Shown piece by piece: positions 19,026 through 26,120 of a stretch of DNA of 64,000 bases. Positions within the stretch are counted from its first letter, which is position 1, and each line of letters starts with the position of its first letter. A model generated the notes under the pieces. That model worked only from the letters and a program-made list of their open reading frames with translations. It was not told the origin of the DNA and did no database searches. A program made the translations under genes and the position numbers. The stretch lies in the IMG/VR virus record IMGVR_UViG_3300028172_000069. One strand, 5' to 3'. The DNA is from a virus (taxonomy: Duplodnaviria; Caudoviricetes).

Positions 19026-20051
19026 TTAGATGCTCTGGAGCGCCTTCAGGGTTTTCTCCATAGCCTTGGTAATGTCTTTAGGCATCGTCTTCCCAGTCAT
19101 GTGGAATGCGAATGCCTCTGCAAAGAACTCGTCCGGGCTCACCATGGAGTATTCGGACAGATCAGGACGCGACTCCACGATCGTTGTACGCTTCGGCCAC
19201 ATCGAGGCGAACTTCTCGCTGTCCTCAAGATAGAGGATTTCGAGGCTGCGGCCGTCGAGCTTGTGGTAGCGCTTGTAGTGGCTGAGCACTTCGCGGAACA
19301 CCAGAGAGTCTTGATCTTCAAGCTCTTTATAGAATTCCTTGAACGTGCCGCTGAACTCGATCAGTTCACCAAGCATCGACTCCAACCGATCTTTCAGGAT
19401 GCTGTTCAGCTCCAGACGCTTGTGGTAGAGCTTGATCCAGCGCGCCTTGTACGCACCAGGCACCATGCGGAACCAGACTGCGTGCGCGTACTCGTGGTAC
19501 AGGACATACTCGTTGTACGCACGGTCGGTGAACGTGTCTGGGTACAGGTCGATGCCGTCAGTGAACTCGCTCATGGAGCGCTTGATGTGGTAGCAGCCTG
19601 CGTACTTTCCACGCTTCGGGAACAGCTTGATGCTGCCAAGCGGGAAGATGTTCAGGTTGTTCTCCAGCATCGCATCGTAGGTACGACGCAGCGCAGACTT
19701 GAGCGCTTTCTTCTCCAGGTCTTCCAGCACACGGAAGAAGTGCATCGGTCCGTACTTGGAATCGACGCTGGTGATGTATGGGTTGATCTTCACGCCGAAC
19801 GCATTACCACCTGGCTTCGGGTTCAGACCGAGGTTGGCAACCAGTGTTTGGTCATCGTACTCAATGGTCTGGTGTTCTTCGTCAGCCAGAGTGCGGTCGA
19901 TCACTGCGCGATTGCGCTCAGGGTTGATCGCGAGGCACAGATGATGCTTGGTGCCAACACGCACGATGATGTAGCTGTCCTTCTGGATCGCCATCATCGC
20001 AGGAGACTTGGACTTCTTCTCCTTTTTCTTCTCTTTGTCTTTCTTGGCCAT
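19026..20051 (-). CDS. Putative zinc metallopeptidase (HExxH)
   Basis: VLYHEYAHAVW plus downstream SPDEFFAEAF (third-ligand Glu). Confidence 0.7.
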   Translation of the reverse strand: MAKKDKEKKKEKKSKSPAMMAIQKDSYIIVRVGTKHHLCLAINPERNRAVIDRTLADEEHQTIEYDDQTLVANLGLNPKPGGNAFGVKINPYITSVDSKYGPMHFFRVLEDLEKKALKSALRRTYDAMLENNLNIFPLGSIKLFPKRGKYAGCYHIKRSMSEFTDGIDLYPDTFTDRAYNEYVLYHEYAHAVWFRMVPGAYKARWIKLYHKRLELNSILKDRLESMLGELIEFSGTFKEFYKELEDQDSLVFREVLSHYKRYHKLDGRSLEILYLEDSEKFASMWPKRTTIVESRPDLSEYSMVSPDEFFAEAFAFHMTGKTMPKDITKAMEKTLKALQSI

Positions 20052-20060
20052 GGGAATTCC

Positions 20061-20663
20061 TTACGAGCTGATCCAGCCACGTGGGTTGTTGGCAGCGCGA
20101 ACGAGAATGTCCACACGCTCTTGCGGGGTTTGCCCGCGTGGATAGTAACCGCCACGTGGATCGTCACGGAAGTGCGCTTCACGGAACATGGCGATGCGGG
20201 CTTCGACAAACTCGTCGAGTGTCTTGATGCCGTACTGCGGCTCTGCAAGCGAGCGGCGGCTGTAACGCTCAACACTGCAATCGCTACTGTCCTGATCGTA
20301 CCACATCAGAAAGTAGCTGTTGTCGGTTTCGTACAGTACCAACCAGTCGTCGCCTTTGGCCTTGAAGTGGTGTTTCGCGGTTGCAGCATCTGCAAACGCT
20401 TGGTAGTTCTCGACAGTAGGTGCGATCCAGTTGGCATCGTTGTCTTCGTCATTGTCAACGCGCTCACCCTCTGGCTTTTCAAGACCGTAGCGCGCCAGCA
20501 GGAACGCGACGTGGTTCTTCCCGTAGTTTACCAGACCATCGAGAAACGAACTAGCAACGTAGTCGTAGCGGGTGTCGAAGGCGATACCTCCATCGCGCAT
20601 GATCTGCGCAGTTGGATAGTCGTATTCCTCCATTGGGAAATCTTTCAGCTTGTACTGAGACAT
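20061..20663 (-). CDS. Hypothetical protein
   Basis: 200-aa ORF, GAGG RBS. Confidence 0.7.
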   Translation of the reverse strand: MSQYKLKDFPMEEYDYPTAQIMRDGGIAFDTRYDYVASSFLDGLVNYGKNHVAFLLARYGLEKPEGERVDNDEDNDANWIAPTVENYQAFADAATAKHHFKAKGDDWLVLYETDNSYFLMWYDQDSSDCSVERYSRRSLAEPQYGIKTLDEFVEARIAMFREAHFRDDPRGGYYPRGQTPQERVDILVRAANNPRGWISS

Positions 20664-20665
20664 GG

Positions 20666-21301
20666 TCAGCCCTCGGAACGAGTCTTGCCAACGATGCCGT
20701 AGTAACCGCCGATCGCTGGGATGAAGATTTGATTGTCGAACTTCTTGTGGTGCTCAAGCGGATCGAGGCTGAACATCACTTCACCTTCCGACGTTGGAGC
20801 ACGCAGAGTACGCACGCCGTAGCGCTTGCAGTCGTCAGCCAAACGGATCACGATGAAACGGGGATCGACATGGGTCTGCTGGATTGCACGGCGAGCGATG
20901 TAGTCGTAGGCACCTTTGCCTAGGTCAACGAAGCGAGCGAACAGGTCGATCACATGCTTGTCTTCGCTGATGTGGTAGCCTTCTTTCGGGTCGAGGCCTT
21001 CGAACGCGAGGAAGGTGTACACGGCGGTCGCGCTTGGCGATGCCGAGTCGAAGTATTCTTCAACCAGCTTGGCCACACCTTCTGCGAACTCGATCTGGAG
21101 AGGCGTCAGTGCTGGACACTCAGCAGGACGCTCAAATTCTGGACGATCAACACCGCCGTCCATGATCTTGTCGTAGGCTGCGCGCAACTGTGCCTTGTTC
21201 GGATGATCGAACGTTGGGTACAACTCGGCGCAGGCTTGTTTGAAGTACAGCTCGGCCGTGTTCAGGTTGATCCGAGTGTACTTGGTCATCACGGTGCTCA
21301 T
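20666..21301 (-). CDS. Hypothetical protein
   Basis: ATGA overlap with the upstream amide-ligase gene. Confidence 0.7.
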   Translation of the reverse strand: MSTVMTKYTRINLNTAELYFKQACAELYPTFDHPNKAQLRAAYDKIMDGGVDRPEFERPAECPALTPLQIEFAEGVAKLVEEYFDSASPSATAVYTFLAFEGLDPKEGYHISEDKHVIDLFARFVDLGKGAYDYIARRAIQQTHVDPRFIVIRLADDCKRYGVRTLRAPTSEGEVMFSLDPLEHHKKFDNQIFIPAIGGYYGIVGKTRSEG

Positions 21302-22155
21302 TCGTCGTCCCACCCTGTATCTGGTTCGCTTACTGCTGGACCGTGAGTACGCACCAGCTCGTTGTAGATGCCGACTACAGACTTGTAGCCTTTGGTGTTC
21401 AGTGGGCTTTCGAGCAGATGCTCCTCGAAGCCAGCCTTGATGCCAGTGTCACCCAACTGAAACGGTTGGTGAACGTACACACGCACGCGCTCGAAATACT
21501 CCTCGAATGCCATGCGGCTGACTGCCTTCTGAATAGGCTTGTTCAGGTCAGCAGGGGTCGCACCCTGGAAGATTTTCAGAATCTTCGGTGTGAAGAAGAT
21601 CGGGCAGTACGCAAGGTCACCGCCGTTCTCTGCACACCACTTCTCGATCAAGCCCTTCTGGAAGGCTTTGTTGGACGAGAATGCGAGCGCACGGAATTCG
21701 TCTTCGCGCCCAGCGTAGTGCTGGCAGGCTTTGCGACTCAGGCAGTACAGGCTGTCTGCACCGTGACCAGTGAAGAACACGTCTTCCTTGATCTTGGGCA
21801 GCAGATGGTACATTGGCCAGAAGCACTCGAAGTCGGTCTTCGATCGGCAGCCAAACTCGGCGAGCTTCACGACGTCCTTCATCAAACGCTTCTGACCAGT
21901 GGGCAATGTGACTTTGGTAAACGGCAGTCCGAACTCTTTCGCAGTCAGTTGGGCGATGCGCACGTCGCGGCTCTCGACACCTTCGAGGTGGAAGCTGTAC
22001 ACATGCGGCTTCAACCCAGCCTCAAGGCAAGCGAACAGGGCGCAGTGACTGTCCACACCGCTGCTCATTGGCACGGCTACCTTCTTCACGCCGTACGACG
22101 CTGCCCGTTCAACAAGGGCTTTACGGAGCTTTCTGGCTCGCGTCTTCTGATCCAT
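21298..22155 (-). CDS. Asparagine-synthetase-C/PP-loop ATP-dependent amide ligase-like protein (CmoY-like)
   Basis: VAVPMSSGVDS PP-loop and FFTGHGADSL (AsnB TGEGADEL-like); no glutaminase domain; neighbours cmoA-like and C5-MTase-like genes. Confidence 0.75.
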   Translation of the reverse strand: MDQKTRARKLRKALVERAASYGVKKVAVPMSSGVDSHCALFACLEAGLKPHVYSFHLEGVESRDVRIAQLTAKEFGLPFTKVTLPTGQKRLMKDVVKLAEFGCRSKTDFECFWPMYHLLPKIKEDVFFTGHGADSLYCLSRKACQHYAGREDEFRALAFSSNKAFQKGLIEKWCAENGGDLAYCPIFFTPKILKIFQGATPADLNKPIQKAVSRMAFEEYFERVRVYVHQPFQLGDTGIKAGFEEHLLESPLNTKGYKSVVGIYNELVRTHGPAVSEPDTGWDDE

Positions 22156-22163
22156 GATCGCTC

Positions 22164-22616
22164 CTAGCGTTTCTTCTTGCCTTTGAATTTTACCCAGTGA
22201 TTACCCTGGAGTCCGCCTTCAAGTTTGTGCAGGCGAACAATGTCACCGTTGGACTTGATGCCCACGATGTAGTAACCCAGGTACTTGTCCTTCGTCACTT
22301 TAAGGAAGGCGGCTGGCGACGTGCGCAAAGGCATGCCGCTGATATCCTTCTTCTTGGTGATCGTGTACGCCACGTAATCGCTGTTGGTCCAATCGTCCAG
22401 CAACTTCATCATCACGTCTGGCATCACGAACTTCATATCGTTGCCGTTGACGGCATAGAAGAACGTGTTGGCATCGCCCTTACCAACGGTGTACATGATG
22501 CCTGCTTGGGTTGCAGACACTTGCCACTGATGAAGGCGACGCTCATTCGGGCTCAGGCCCTCTTCCATTTTCCACAGCGTTTTCACACGCTTGCGGAGCA
22601 ATTGGAGTTCGCGCAT
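22164..22616 (-). CDS. Hypothetical protein inside the modification cluster
   Basis: 150-aa ORF 3 nt after the cmoA-like stop. Confidence 0.7.
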   Translation of the reverse strand: MRELQLLRKRVKTLWKMEEGLSPNERRLHQWQVSATQAGIMYTVGKGDANTFFYAVNGNDMKFVMPDVMMKLLDDWTNSDYVAYTITKKKDISGMPLRTSPAAFLKVTKDKYLGYYIVGIKSNGDIVRLHKLEGGLQGNHWVKFKGKKKR

Positions 22617-22619
22617 TGC

Positions 22620-23405
22620 TTAGTCCTTGATGGCGATGTAGCCCACGAAGTTGAGGTTGCGGAAGAACGTCTCGACGCTACGGAAGCCAGCGGTGCGCAG
22701 CATTTCGATATTGTTCTCATGGGTCACTGGGACCTGAACACCTTCGAGGGCTGCACGCTTGCGCTCAATGTCTTCCCAGCTATAGCCGTTGTCGTGCTTG
22801 TACTCATGGTAGGCATCGACCAGCAGTTCTTGCATCACTGCCGTGTTGCCCAGCACCTTCTCTACCATGAAGAAGGCACCGCCAGATTCCAGACCATCGT
22901 ACACGCCCTTTAGGATGGACGGTCGGAAATTGATCGGCACGAAGATCATGGTAAGGATCGACAGCACGAGGTTAGTCGGCAGCGTCTGCACTTTGTGGAA
23001 TTCCACACTGCCACTCATGTGCGCACTCGGCCAGCGAATGGCGTCGGCAATCTCTTTGGCCTTCTTGCGCAGGTCGTAGCTGCACGGGTGTACGTTGAAC
23101 TGGTCGGCGAAGCGCCCACGCATTTCTTCAAGCATCGGGTCCGAGATTTCGCTCAGATAGAACTGGGCTTCTGGGAACGCACCAATGAACTTGGCACTCG
23201 CTTCACCGCGGCTTGCACCGAGGTCAATGACGTTGCACGGTGTCTTGACGAAGTTCTTGCCCAGTCGCCACACCAATTCACGCATCGAACCATAGCCGGG
23301 GATGCTGCGCTCCAGCATGTTGTCAAACTTCTTGGCGACGTCCTCGTTGAACTCCCACTTCTGGCCGGGTACGTGATCGTCGCGCAGGGTTTCGATTGGT
23401 TGCAT
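22620..23405 (-). CDS. cmoA: Carboxy-SAM synthase CmoA-like
   Basis: WEFNEDVAKKFDNMLERSIPGY, DLGAS, MVEK, ERKRAALEGV, AGF..VETFFRNLNF.GYIAIK parallel E. coli CmoA motifs; GGAG RBS before ATG 23405. Confidence 0.88.
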   Translation of the reverse strand: MQPIETLRDDHVPGQKWEFNEDVAKKFDNMLERSIPGYGSMRELVWRLGKNFVKTPCNVIDLGASRGEASAKFIGAFPEAQFYLSEISDPMLEEMRGRFADQFNVHPCSYDLRKKAKEIADAIRWPSAHMSGSVEFHKVQTLPTNLVLSILTMIFVPINFRPSILKGVYDGLESGGAFFMVEKVLGNTAVMQELLVDAYHEYKHDNGYSWEDIERKRAALEGVQVPVTHENNIEMLRTAGFRSVETFFRNLNFVGYIAIKD

Positions 23406-23448
23406 GTCCGTAACTCCATGTTTGATGCCCATGTGGGCTTACTGGTCA

Positions 23449-23455
23449 TTTACAG
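23449..23455 (-). promoter_or_regulatory. CTGTAAA putative phage promoter motif (representative copy)
   Basis: Directly after a terminator and 44 nt upstream of cmoA; recurrent motif, see findings. Confidence 0.5.
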
Positions 23456-23467
23456 TTTCAAGGCCAC

Positions 23468-23493
23468 AAAAAGGGAGCGCGATGGCTCCCTTT
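23468..23493 (-). terminator. Rho-independent terminator
   Basis: AAAGGGAGC-CATCGC-GCTCCCTTTTT. Confidence 0.75.
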
Positions 23494-23502
23494 GTGCGAG
23501 GC

Positions 23503-24516
23503 TTACAGCTTTTCGAGGATATTGCGGCGAAGCTCGCGGCAAACGTGGTACATCATGAGCGGTGGTACCGAGCGGCCGATGCGCTCAAACTGCTGCTTGT
23601 AGGTACCAGTGAAGATGAAGTCTTCGGGGAAGGTGAAGATGGTCTTCAACTCGTCGATGGTGTACTTACGGCGCTCACCGCTCAGCGTCTCGATGAATCC
23701 ACCTGAGGAGAATCCAGCAGTCTCGCTGTTGGTGCCATCCGAAGCCACGATTGTAGGTGACGGGATCGACGCAGGCACGTACTTCAGGTCACCCTTGTGC
23801 TTCGACTTCAGGTACGCCACGTGAGGTAGAACGTCATTCACGTTGATGGCATACTTGTGCGGCGTTGGGAATACAGGGTCGAAACCTTTCTTCACCAGAT
23901 CGTCACGCACGCCGACGAAGATCACACGCTCACGGGCTTGCGCCACACCAAGGTATGCAGCGTTGAGCACTTGCGCACGCACGCTGTAACCGATCGCCTT
24001 CAAGTCACGGAGAATTTCGACGAAGTAGCCTTTCGCGTCACCCTCGACCATGCCTTTGACATTCTCGCAAACAAATACCTTCGGCATGAAGGCTTCCAGC
24101 TTGCGCATTTCCTCGTAGAAGAGGTCGTCTGTGCGCTGGTAGACGTTCTCGCTGTACAGCTTCTCCTTGCCCCAGTCATCACTGCCAGTACCAGACGTGG
24201 AGAATGACTTGCACGGTGGGCTACCTTCCGAGAAGTCGAGCTGGCCACGTTTCAGGCCAAGCTCTTTGCGAATGGCTGCCCAGTCAACCTTGCGAATGTC
24301 TTCGCCGATGACCATGGTGCCTTTGTGGTTCTTCTGGTAGGTTTCGATGGCCGGCTTGATGAACTCGGTAGCCGCGAGCACTTGGATGCCCGCCATCTTC
24401 ACGCCAGTAGACGAGCCGCCACAGCCACTGAAAGAACTGATGCCTTTGAAGTGCTTGGGCAGCGCGTTGATCTTCTTCATCGAAGGGATCTTGGGAATGC
24501 GTTTCTCATTGGCCAT
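23503..24516 (-). CDS. DNA cytosine-C5 methyltransferase-fold enzyme, probably a carboxymethyltransferase (CmoX-like)
   Basis: Motifs I FSGCGG, IV SPPCKSFS, VI ENV, VIII QARERVIFVG; motif X is GRSVPP rather than GN(S/A)V. Confidence 0.88.
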   Translation of the reverse strand: MANEKRIPKIPSMKKINALPKHFKGISSFSGCGGSSTGVKMAGIQVLAATEFIKPAIETYQKNHKGTMVIGEDIRKVDWAAIRKELGLKRGQLDFSEGSPPCKSFSTSGTGSDDWGKEKLYSENVYQRTDDLFYEEMRKLEAFMPKVFVCENVKGMVEGDAKGYFVEILRDLKAIGYSVRAQVLNAAYLGVAQARERVIFVGVRDDLVKKGFDPVFPTPHKYAINVNDVLPHVAYLKSKHKGDLKYVPASIPSPTIVASDGTNSETAGFSSGGFIETLSGERRKYTIDELKTIFTFPEDFIFTGTYKQQFERIGRSVPPLMMYHVCRELRRNILEKL

Positions 24517-24526
24517 GGCTGCGTCC

Positions 24527-25333
24527 TTACTTCTTTTTCTTCGCTGGCATTTTCAGCTCTGTTTTCTTCGGAGCCGCGAGCTTGGATTTCTTGGGCTTGT
24601 CACCCTTGTCCTTACTCTTGACCTTCTCTTTGTCTTTCGACTTTTCCTTCTTGCCGTCTTTCTCTTTCAGCTTGAGCTTCGGAGCTTTCGGCTCAGCCTT
24701 GGCCGCAGGCTGCGACTTGGCACTGGTGTTGAACTGGAATTTGCACTTCGGGCAGCAATGCTCGAACTCGAAGCTGTCCTCGCCGAACTCTTGGAACGAC
24801 TCCTTGCCTTCGCCATCGTTGTCGATTTCGCGACCTTTGGAGTCGAGCGTTGGCATCTTTGGCATCAAGCCACGCAGGCTCAGTGGGTCGATACCCAGAA
24901 CGTTCACGTCGAACGACTTGCCGGCGTCGAGCTTCTCCAGCATAACGCCCAGCTTGGTACGGTCGAAGTCGCCACCGTGCGCGTTCGCTGCGATGTTGGC
25001 CGCCATCTCGGATTTCTTGTCGCTCCAGTCCACGATGCGTAGTGGGATACGGATTTCGCCGCTCGCAGTCTTCGCAACGATGTGACCTTCTGCAACGGTA
25101 CCGAAGGCGTCCTTCACAGGCTTTGTGACGATCTTGGTCTTGACGTCCTTACCGCGCAGACGCTTCAAGCGCTGGTGACCGGAAATCAGGTTCTGGGTCT
25201 TCTTGTTGAAGACGACGCCGGACAGGTCACCGTAGGTAGTCATGGACAGGTGCAGGTTGTCCAGTCGCTTTTCACTGATGACACGCGGGTTATACTTGGC
25301 CTCTTTGAGGTCCTTGATGGTCAATTCTGCCAT
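24527..25333 (-). CDS. ParB/Srx N-terminal-domain protein with CPKC zinc finger and basic tail
   Basis: YNPR...SMTTYG..VVFN...LISGHQRL; HCCPKC. Confidence 0.85.
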   Translation of the reverse strand: MAELTIKDLKEAKYNPRVISEKRLDNLHLSMTTYGDLSGVVFNKKTQNLISGHQRLKRLRGKDVKTKIVTKPVKDAFGTVAEGHIVAKTASGEIRIPLRIVDWSDKKSEMAANIAANAHGGDFDRTKLGVMLEKLDAGKSFDVNVLGIDPLSLRGLMPKMPTLDSKGREIDNDGEGKESFQEFGEDSFEFEHCCPKCKFQFNTSAKSQPAAKAEPKAPKLKLKEKDGKKEKSKDKEKVKSKDKGDKPKKSKLAAPKKTELKMPAKKKK

Positions 25334-25348
25334 TTGCTTAATAGCCTG

Positions 25349-25582
25349 TTAGTTCTTGGGAATTGGGTAGCAGTCGGTCGCGACACCGTCCGTGCCAGTT
25401 GCGATGAAACACTCGATGCCGGGCCGCGGCGAGTAAACTTGCTTTTGCACGGAAGTCGCTGCCATCCAACGACTCCATGCAGTGAACCCGTAGATCATCA
25501 ACATGATGAATACTACCACGCCCGCAACAGCCAGAAGGATGAGGGCGAACGTTTTACGGTCGTTTTGTGCTGAATGTGCCAT
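25349..25582 (-). CDS. Small membrane protein
   Basis: One long hydrophobic helix; GGAG RBS. Confidence 0.7.
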   Translation of the reverse strand: MAHSAQNDRKTFALILLAVAGVVVFIMLMIYGFTAWSRWMAATSVQKQVYSPRPGIECFIATGTDGVATDCYPIPKN

Positions 25583-25616
25583 AGCATTCTCCAGTGGTTT
25601 GTCTGGAGTTTACAGT

Positions 25617-26120
25617 TTAGATCACCACTCCGAGTTCCTCACGCATGATGCGCAGGCACTCATCCTTCTGCATGAACATCCAGCGCTTCGGTAACGGGAT
25701 GCGCTTACCAGAGCCCGTCATGAGCAGCACGCAGAACTTGAAGCCGCGCTCTTGGCATGCCTTGGCCTTAGCCTTGTTCATGCTCCAGCCGCGCTTCTTG
25801 TTGTTGATCAGGCCCATCGTTGCCTTCGACTTCACTTCCACGATGATGTTGTGGTTGCGAATGAAGATATCAGGCATGTAGGTACGCCAGCGCTTGCCGT
25901 ACTTGTAGCGAATGTTCAGGGCGTTACCCATTTCGCACTCGGTACGAATGTCGGCCGGGTCGAATCCGCCTTTCTCGACAAGGTACTCCAGCGCTTGTCG
26001 CTCGTAGCCTTGAACCAGCAGTTGCCGACCGTGGAACTCATAGTGGTACTGCTTGTACTTCTCGGAACGCTTCTGTCTGCGTTTCTTCATCGGTGCGTTG
26101 TTTCCAAACAGACCTTGCAT
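25617..26120 (-). CDS. PD-(D/E)xK endonuclease
   Basis: VQGYE..AL...TYMPDIFI..NIIVEVKS; GGAGG RBS. Confidence 0.8.
   Translation of the reverse strand: MQGLFGNNAPMKKRRQKRSEKYKQYHYEFHGRQLLVQGYERQALEYLVEKGGFDPADIRTECEMGNALNIRYKYGKRWRTYMPDIFIRNHNIIVEVKSKATMGLINNKKRGWSMNKAKAKACQERGFKFCVLLMTGSGKRIPLPKRWMFMQKDECLRIMREELGVVI

Follow-up and report, generated by a model that had tools for sequence, protein, structure and literature searches.

A pathway that converts cytosine of phage DNA into an amide-bearing base has been shown in Synechococcus phage S-B43 (Yang et al., Nat Commun, December 2025; PMC12783734). CmoA produces carboxy-S-adenosylmethionine (carboxy-SAM), CmoX carboxymethylates C5 of cytosines located at GC sites, and CmoY, an asparagine synthetase homologue devoid of a glutaminase domain, ligates glycine to the 5-carboxymethylcytosine (5cxmC) in an ATP-driven reaction and is active in vitro on its own (PMC12783734). 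Here, we describe a related module on a 64,000 nt stretch of viral DNA (Duplodnaviria; Caudoviricetes; IMG/VR record IMGVR_UViG_3300028172_000069), referred to as the window. It represents part of the genome of a giant phage from soil, a relative of Pseudomonas phage PaBG. We focus on a 285-aa ligase (21298-22155, minus strand) and on a 150-aa protein, f150 (22164-22616, minus strand).

Several ligase clusters have been reported to differ in their pocket residues and thus perhaps to use other amines. The residues which bind the glycine carboxylate are kept in the largest cluster and in several smaller ones, while ammonia was assigned to a separate cluster which bears its own glutaminase domain. 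Neighbours with a ParBc domain have already been described for such loci (PMC12783734). The description of the 5cxmC system dates from as late as December 2025, and the glycine adduct is the one amide product known.

PaBG and the window share the gene order ParB-like, CmoX, CmoA, f150, and ligase, with a nucleotide identity of about 76% across the module. The PaBG proteins gp306, annotated as asparagine synthase, and gp307, annotated as hypothetical, are direct orthologues of the window ligase and of f150 (82% and 54% identical, respectively). The window differs by one extra downstream open reading frame (ORF). Because PaBG was cultured on P. aeruginosa PAO1, the chemistry of this lineage is directly testable.

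From the comparisons described below, we consider it rather probable that the module encodes an amide pathway of the CmoA-CmoX-CmoY type which is complemented by f150 as a scaffold-type, putatively DNA-binding protein. Of the two proteins under study, f150 is the more original element.

The ligase and its CmoA and CmoX partners

An earlier reading of this DNA, made from the sequence alone, had reported that cmoA is followed by a 150-aa ORF and by a 285-aa PP-loop protein with the motifs SSGVDS and TGHGAD and without a glutaminase domain, and had proposed that the latter is an amide ligase with the fold of asparagine synthetase. The ORFs were confirmed, and the proposal is supported by the position of the 285-aa protein in a CmoA/CmoX operon and by its homology to the characterised 5cxmC ligase of S-B43 (SpCmoY), with 33% sequence identity over 243 residues (E 7e-35). 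The protein matches PHROG 26038 (E 4e-117), and its only Pfam domain is Asn_synthase (PF00733, E 8e-7, profile positions 18-153 of 354). Among IMG/VR sequences, the protein belongs to a single continuous CmoY family, which supports its classification as a CmoY-family homologue, a new member of a known family.

The ligase aligns to residues 206-441 of asparagine synthetase B from E. coli (AsnB; 1CT9), which is the synthetase domain only. A profile built from 40 homologues matches AsnB with an E-value of 2.5e-9, with the PP-loop in register, and beta-lactam synthetase (1JGT) with an E-value of 2.1e-6. SSGVDS is found at ligase residues 31-36 and TGHGAD at residues 129-134; in the family profile alignment, T129-G130-H131-G132-A133-D134 are placed on S346-G347-E348-G349-S350-D351 of AsnB. 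Among the 119 ligases which were compared, the PP-loop and the aspartate of the SGxGxD motif are conserved in all. The window ligase thus resembles AsnB and beta-lactam synthetase in the fold of the synthetase domain, in the PP-loop (SxGxDS), and in the SG-x-G-x-D motif, and acyl-adenylate chemistry is expected of this fold. It differs from AsnB by the missing N-terminal nucleophile (Ntn) domain, by a histidine in place of E348, and by its presumed substrate, a carboxylate borne by DNA rather than aspartate.

Neither the 285-aa protein nor the products of the adjoining genes contain a glutaminase domain, as judged by Pfam and by the AsnB alignment. Identity of the ligase as AsnB itself was rejected, given a score of 30.1 bits against TIGR01536 (cut-off 267.1), the lack of the Ntn glutaminase domain, and the replacement of E348 by histidine. 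We also ruled out that f150 is a detached glutaminase, as no match to it was obtained from Pfam, NCBIfam or the named PHROGs.

The CmoA homologue (270 aa; 22620-23432, minus strand) shows 30% sequence identity to SpCmoA (E 5e-31). It matches PHROG 4752 (E 9e-71) and also NCBIfam TIGR00740 (E 1e-37), the latter below the equivalog cut-off. The candidate DNA cytosine C5-carboxymethyltransferase of the CmoX type (337 aa; 23503-24516, minus strand) carries a Pfam DNA_methylase domain (E 1.5e-49) and is 36% identical to SpCmoX (E 1e-67). SPPC is retained, as are the two arginines in the motif ER(I/V)GR(S/M)VPP, which reads ERIGRSVPP in the window. The position of SPPC indicates that the published CmoX numbering is 4 above that of the GenBank ORF translation, so that R350 corresponds to the first of the two motif arginines.

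CmoX homologues are interrupted in other phages. The C5-methylase of metagenome contig L011 (L011:1-1257) carries intein-splicing and LAGLIDADG domains, and those from Erwinia and Yersinia phages are ORFs of 695-742 aa in which the methylase halves are split by about 350 aa.

The window thus has all three activities of the S-B43 system as candidates: a carboxy-SAM synthase, a carboxymethyltransferase with C5-methyltransferase fold and the SPPC and arginine signature, and an AMP-forming ligase without glutaminase. It differs from S-B43 in three respects: the genes for f150 and for a ParB-like protein are added, both being absent from the S-B43 genome; the gene order is not the same; and the ligase belongs to another clade, with a changed residue at the site which faces the nucleophile.

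By homology to the tested S-B43 system, CmoA would make carboxy-SAM, and the CmoX homologue would carboxymethylate cytosine C5 in the phage DNA. The ligase would then adenylate the carboxylate of 5cxmC, using its key sites (the PP-loop S31-S36, the G130/H131/D134 motif with D134, and K210), and would join it, in an AMP-forming reaction, to a free amine, which would result in an amide-hypermodified cytosine. A role of these enzymes in the synthesis of uridine 5-oxyacetic acid (cmo5U) of tRNA instead of in DNA modification is very unlikely, given the CmoX signature and the tested precedent in S-B43.

The amine and the exchange of the ligase

In a maximum-likelihood tree, the clade of the window ligase is parted from that of SpCmoY by the deepest split. 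According to work on AsnB and beta-lactam synthetase, residue 348 is located next to the acyl-adenylate, at the point of attack by the nitrogen nucleophile. Across 83 distinct ligases of the CmoY family, the corresponding column is hypervariable, with isoleucine in SpCmoY (Ile118) and M, W, L, F, Y, Q, T, D, S, A or N elsewhere. Histidine is found in the window (H131), in PaBG, in a Yersinia phage, and in the loci L014, L042, L048, L068, and L008.

All polar residues which are conserved family-wide are present in the window ligase (K106, E110, H146, R155, N205, Q209, K210, H229, Q233, and N253). R155 and N205 are replaced only in L012, L040/L041, L019/L037, and L021. In L012, the ligase adjoins a gene for a weakly similar, spermidine-synthase-like protein (L012:1200-1964), and the loss of the arginine in this ligase would fit a cationic amine. 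From this conservation pattern, we infer that R155 helps to bind an alpha-carboxylate. Because R155 and all the other polar residues are kept, the amine used by the window ligase is most likely an alpha-amino acid.

The ligase might simply be an orthologue of SpCmoY which attaches glycine and yields the known 5-glycylcarboxymethylcytosine. We regard this as quite possible, if short of an even likelihood. The ten family-wide polar residues are common to the window ligase and SpCmoY, and the module contains no gene for amine biosynthesis, so that a common metabolite probably serves as the amine. The retention of the residues which bind the glycine carboxylate, reported for the largest cluster and for several smaller ones (PMC12783734), points in the same direction. 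This reading has to contend, however, with the deep separation of the two clades and with His131 in place of Ile118. In addition, R246 and R248 of SpCmoY, which are conserved in its clade and in the sister clade of the latter, are replaced by tyrosine and serine in the window ligase, and several further clade-specific changes separate the two proteins. A different amino acid is a possibility to which we give slightly less credence than to glycine.

The sequence-only reading had raised the idea that the amine may not be glycine. The separate clade and the His131/Ile118 exchange favour this idea, while the retention of R155 and of the other family-wide polar residues counts against it. The idea as such is not new, as other amines are already part of the outlook of the S-B43 study (PMC12783734); here, it is applied to a new member of the family.

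A third candidate is free ammonia, which would lead to 5-carbamoylmethylcytosine, with His131 acting as a general base that replaces Glu348 of AsnB. The ligase has the fold of the ammonia-transferring asparagine synthetase with the glutaminase domain missing, and only the window clade and its sister clade have His or Gln at the E348 site. Moreover, the same-clade ligase of L014 adjoins, within the Cmo module, the gene for a pyridoxal phosphate (PLP) enzyme of the D-cysteine desulfhydrase/1-aminocyclopropane-1-carboxylate (ACC) deaminase family (L014:6142-7269; E 1e-40), and enzymes of this family release ammonia. This neighbourhood, however, involves one gene on one contig, and the retained R155 and N205 suggest a substrate which bears a carboxylate. 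Together with the published assignment of ammonia to a different cluster with its own glutaminase domain (PMC12783734), this makes ammonia improbable as the amine of the window ligase. The remaining likelihood falls to amines of another kind.

The ligase varies to a much larger extent than its neighbours when modules are compared. Between Erwinia phages Y3 and Alexandra, f150 is 82% and CmoA 88% identical, but the ligases share only 32% identity and belong to different clades. Similarly, the window and the PaBG-like contig L017 show 74% sequence identity for the ParB-like protein, 85% for CmoX, 66% for CmoA, and 55% for f150, but 37% for the ligase, and the L017 ligase is 75% identical to that of Y3. 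In both L017 and Y3, the ligase gene is followed by a gene for a 2-oxoglutarate (2OG)-Fe(II) oxygenase (50% identical to each other), while a DUF1611 protein precedes the Alexandra-type ligase. These identities point to two or more exchanges of the ligase between modules which are conserved in their other genes. The ParB-like protein, CmoX, CmoA, and f150 would thus form a constant scaffold, surrounded by exchangeable cassettes consisting of a ligase and tailoring enzymes. The PLP enzyme of L014, the spermidine-synthase-like protein of L012, and a GT1-like glycosyltransferase encoded inside the Cmo module of L006 (L006:2680-3936) may make the amine or decorate it further. The swapping of ligases together with their companions by closely related giant phages is what one would expect if the final adduct were the object of an arms race, and the swaps point to several DNA bases which are still to be found.

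f150 and the ParB-like protein

Searching 1.84 billion representative proteins with a profile retrieved 79 cluster representatives of f150 (at 50% identity), nearly all of them with a length of 135-180 aa. Together with an AlphaFold2 model, computed from an alignment of 54 sequences, which has a predicted local distance difference test (pLDDT) score of 95.5, this establishes the f150 ORF as a real gene. The model begins with a long N-terminal helix, which is followed by a sheet of four strands, another helix, and a second beta unit. Conserved positions in the 54-sequence alignment are E18, W31, the hairpin G45-K46-x-x-x-N50-T51, P66, and W141. The window protein shows the family signature, which comprises QWQ, the hairpin VGKGGxNT, YP, a C-terminal W, and a length of about 150 aa. 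The family is uniformly basic, with a median isoelectric point (pI) of 9.5, and many members have a Lys/Arg-rich tail at either end. f150 from the window has a pI of 9.9 and ends in a Lys-rich tail.

f150 matches PHROG 23597 (E 3e-47), to which no function is assigned. A comparison of 54 members to Pfam gave no match, and neither did NCBIfam, the named PHROGs or a language-model atlas. One homologue is labelled "antitoxin YwqK" by the Joint Genome Institute (JGI), a label which Pfam does not support. Fold searches with two models (pLDDT 82 and 95.5), by Foldseek against the PDB, by VIA (VIA-wide and second look), and against the ESM Atlas and BFVD, returned only the PaBG orthologue as a match, with residues 79-150 barely covered. 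Nucleic-acid-binding folds of the PUR/Whirly-like type were considered for f150. The best fold score was obtained for Pur-alpha (3k44; Z 6.4, root-mean-square deviation 3.2, 76 residues), restricted to residues 1-79, for which YkuJ reached Z 6.1-6.2; both are below the noise level of Z 7-8. We conclude that f150 represents an undescribed family of small, basic proteins which is confined to phages.

A natural fusion gives a hint on its role. In protein P0082 (L125:1181-1972 and L126:380-1171), a MarR-like winged-helix domain is fused to an f150 domain. Its gene is placed between those for a 379-aa CmoA-like methyltransferase and an Asn_synthase protein, which matches the position of f150 in the window. 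The high pI, the Lys/Arg-rich tails, and the winged-helix fusion suggest that f150 binds DNA and helps enzymes which modify bases on the DNA. f150 is thus probably a DNA-associated protein.

The same 53 GenBank phage records carry the ligase and f150, according to a tally by genus: PaBG, Erwinia giant phages, Dickeya AD1, and Yersinia fHe-Yen9-02. All f150-bearing metagenome contigs long enough to judge (L006, L008, L011/L012, L014, and L125) also have cmoA and the ligase, and among 30 f150 loci from IMG/VR, both genes were found within 10 kb of f150 in 29. The reverse count was based on the 80 best IMG/VR loci, which yielded 65 distinct ligases. For 15 of these ligases, f150 is located nearby. 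It is absent from 17, each with at least 5 kb of sequence on both sides, and the contigs were too short in the other 33 cases. In 14 of the 17 f150-less loci, cmoA and cmoX are adjacent, so that the CmoA-CmoX-CmoY set is complete, and L048 has a ligase of the window's own clade without f150. The co-occurrence is thus one-way: f150 strongly predicts Cmo genes, while Cmo genes only weakly predict f150. The check for co-occurrence of the 150-aa family with these genes, which had been suggested from the sequence alone, was thus positive when starting from f150 but not when starting from the ligase.

f150 is also associated with the ParB/Srx-like protein encoded upstream of CmoX (24527-25333, minus strand; PHROG 620, ParB-like, E 6e-33), which has a C-terminal CPxC motif and a Lys-rich tail. 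Among the cmoX-containing loci, f150 and the ParB-like protein occur together in 24 and are both missing from 47, while the ParB-like protein is found alone in none and f150 alone in one. The latter locus begins inside cmoX, which would place the ParB-like gene beyond the end of the contig. As most of the carriers are giant phages related to each other, the counts lack phylogenetic independence. In Erwinia and Yersinia phages, the ParB-like gene is directly upstream of that for CmoX but about 13-17 kb away from cmoA, the ligase, and f150. As a whole, the ParB-like family is far wider, and its members are mostly found without Cmo genes. A complex prediction for f150 and residues 1-205 of the ParB-like protein scored 0.02 (mark 0.32), which speaks neither for nor against binding.

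The only f150 locus without Cmo genes is on L156 (IMGVR_UViG_3300006086_000006), a contig of 147 kb with an estimated completeness of 56%. In L156:8042-13017, the gene order is sugar epimerase/dehydratase, TET-associated glycosyltransferase (TAGT), ParB-like protein, TAGT, f150 (full-length), and sigma factor. Neither a ligase nor CmoA, a C5-methylase or TET was found within these 147 kb. The pair of f150 and ParB-like protein is thus shared between the window and a TAGT module, a likeness which involves one locus on an incomplete contig. The modules differ by having glycosylation in one case and amidation in the other, and the window has no TAGT. This single locus suggests that the pair serves hypermodification on DNA in general.

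We lean towards the view, at somewhat below even likelihood, that f150, jointly with the ParB-like protein or in parallel to it, functions on the DNA itself and thereby aids the modification enzymes. Several points weigh against this view and against the pathway as outlined above. The co-occurrence of f150 with the ParB-like protein may reflect mere kinship of the carrier phages. f150 has no recognisable DNA-binding fold, its best match (Pur-alpha) being within noise. The conserved residues E18, K46, N50, and T51 could equally mark the active site of an enzyme. With respect to the pathway, no DNA modification is reported in the PaBG paper, nor was any found by a literature search. Finally, the proposed role of R155 as a carboxylate binder derives from the conservation pattern and not from the glycine-pocket residues identified in the S-B43 study.

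Among the alternatives for f150, that of a passenger of the phage lineage receives the likelihood which is left by the other readings. It is unlikely that f150 is an enzyme which acts on modified DNA or on a metabolite of the module, with E18, K46, N50, and T51 in its active site. In an alignment with a mean column identity of only 26%, T51 and W141 never vary and E18, K46, and N50 hardly do, and the fold is confidently predicted but without match. Against catalysis, f150 shows no similarity to any catalytic family in Pfam or NCBIfam, and the basic tails and the winged-helix fusion point to binding.

Slightly less likely still is that f150 is a subunit of the ligase by which the amine is determined or presented, or that it reads the finished base; the role of an accessory or reader subunit had been suggested from the sequence alone. 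The f150 gene abuts or overlaps that of the ligase in the window and in L019, L021, L037, L042, L040, L041, L006, and L125, and it is almost never found without a nearby ligase. Nevertheless, f150 was conserved while the clade of the ligase was swapped twice, an own-clade ligase (L048) and 14 complete Cmo loci do without f150, and on L156, f150 is accompanied by TAGT glycosyltransferases. The finding that CmoY of S-B43 works alone in vitro (PMC12783734) weakens this idea as well. f150 is probably not a specificity subunit of the ligase but, together with the ParB-like protein, part of the constant scaffold of one class of modules. Its near-exclusive association with these modules makes f150 a concrete candidate for directing such enzymes to phage DNA.

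A farther-reaching proposal combines these elements: f150 and the ParB-like protein would be a portable, DNA-directed pair which serves carboxymethyl-amide and TAGT modules alike, cassettes would be swapped around it, and the His-type ligase of the window would add a non-glycine amide and thus create an undescribed base. In this combined form, we consider the proposal doubtful.

Gene layout and neighbouring genes

The genes of the module are tightly packed on the minus strand, their order in the direction of transcription being ParB-like, CmoX-type, CmoA, f150, ligase, and a 215-aa ORF. The start of f150 follows the cmoA stop after 3 nt, and that of the ligase gene follows the f150 stop after 8 nt. 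A pattern scan revealed no convincing promoter or terminator between the module genes. The spacing and the lack of such internal signals are consistent with co-transcription of the module. The whole stretch 20000-25600 is present in 14 soil libraries filed as metatranscriptomes, on contigs of 28-59 kb with even depth. These contigs may represent DNA carry-over and hence do not demonstrate transcription.

The 215-aa ORF (20666-21313, minus strand) overlaps the end of the ligase gene by 16 nt and is translationally coupled to it. It is possibly a further member of the module. Weak homologues adjoin the ligase or f150 in PaBG and in L017/L018, and another one is located about 1 kb from the ligase in L078, where neither cmoA nor cmoX is nearby. 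The ORF had no family match in Pfam, PHROG or NCBIfam and belongs to a narrow family, with only three close relatives.

Directly upstream of the module, a 167-aa protein (25617-26120, minus strand) has DUF7487 and the N-terminal domain of a TnsA-like endonuclease. Its PaBG homologue is annotated as a Vsr/MutH/HJR-family endonuclease.

A second contig, about 21.5-21.7 kb long and of similar depth, is present in four soil libraries and matches the window only at two 21-nt flanks (21159-21179 and 24582-24602). These flanks are spaced by 4.3 kb on the second contig compared to 3.4 kb in the window. A co-occurring relative thus seems to carry a divergent and longer module inside conserved flanks.

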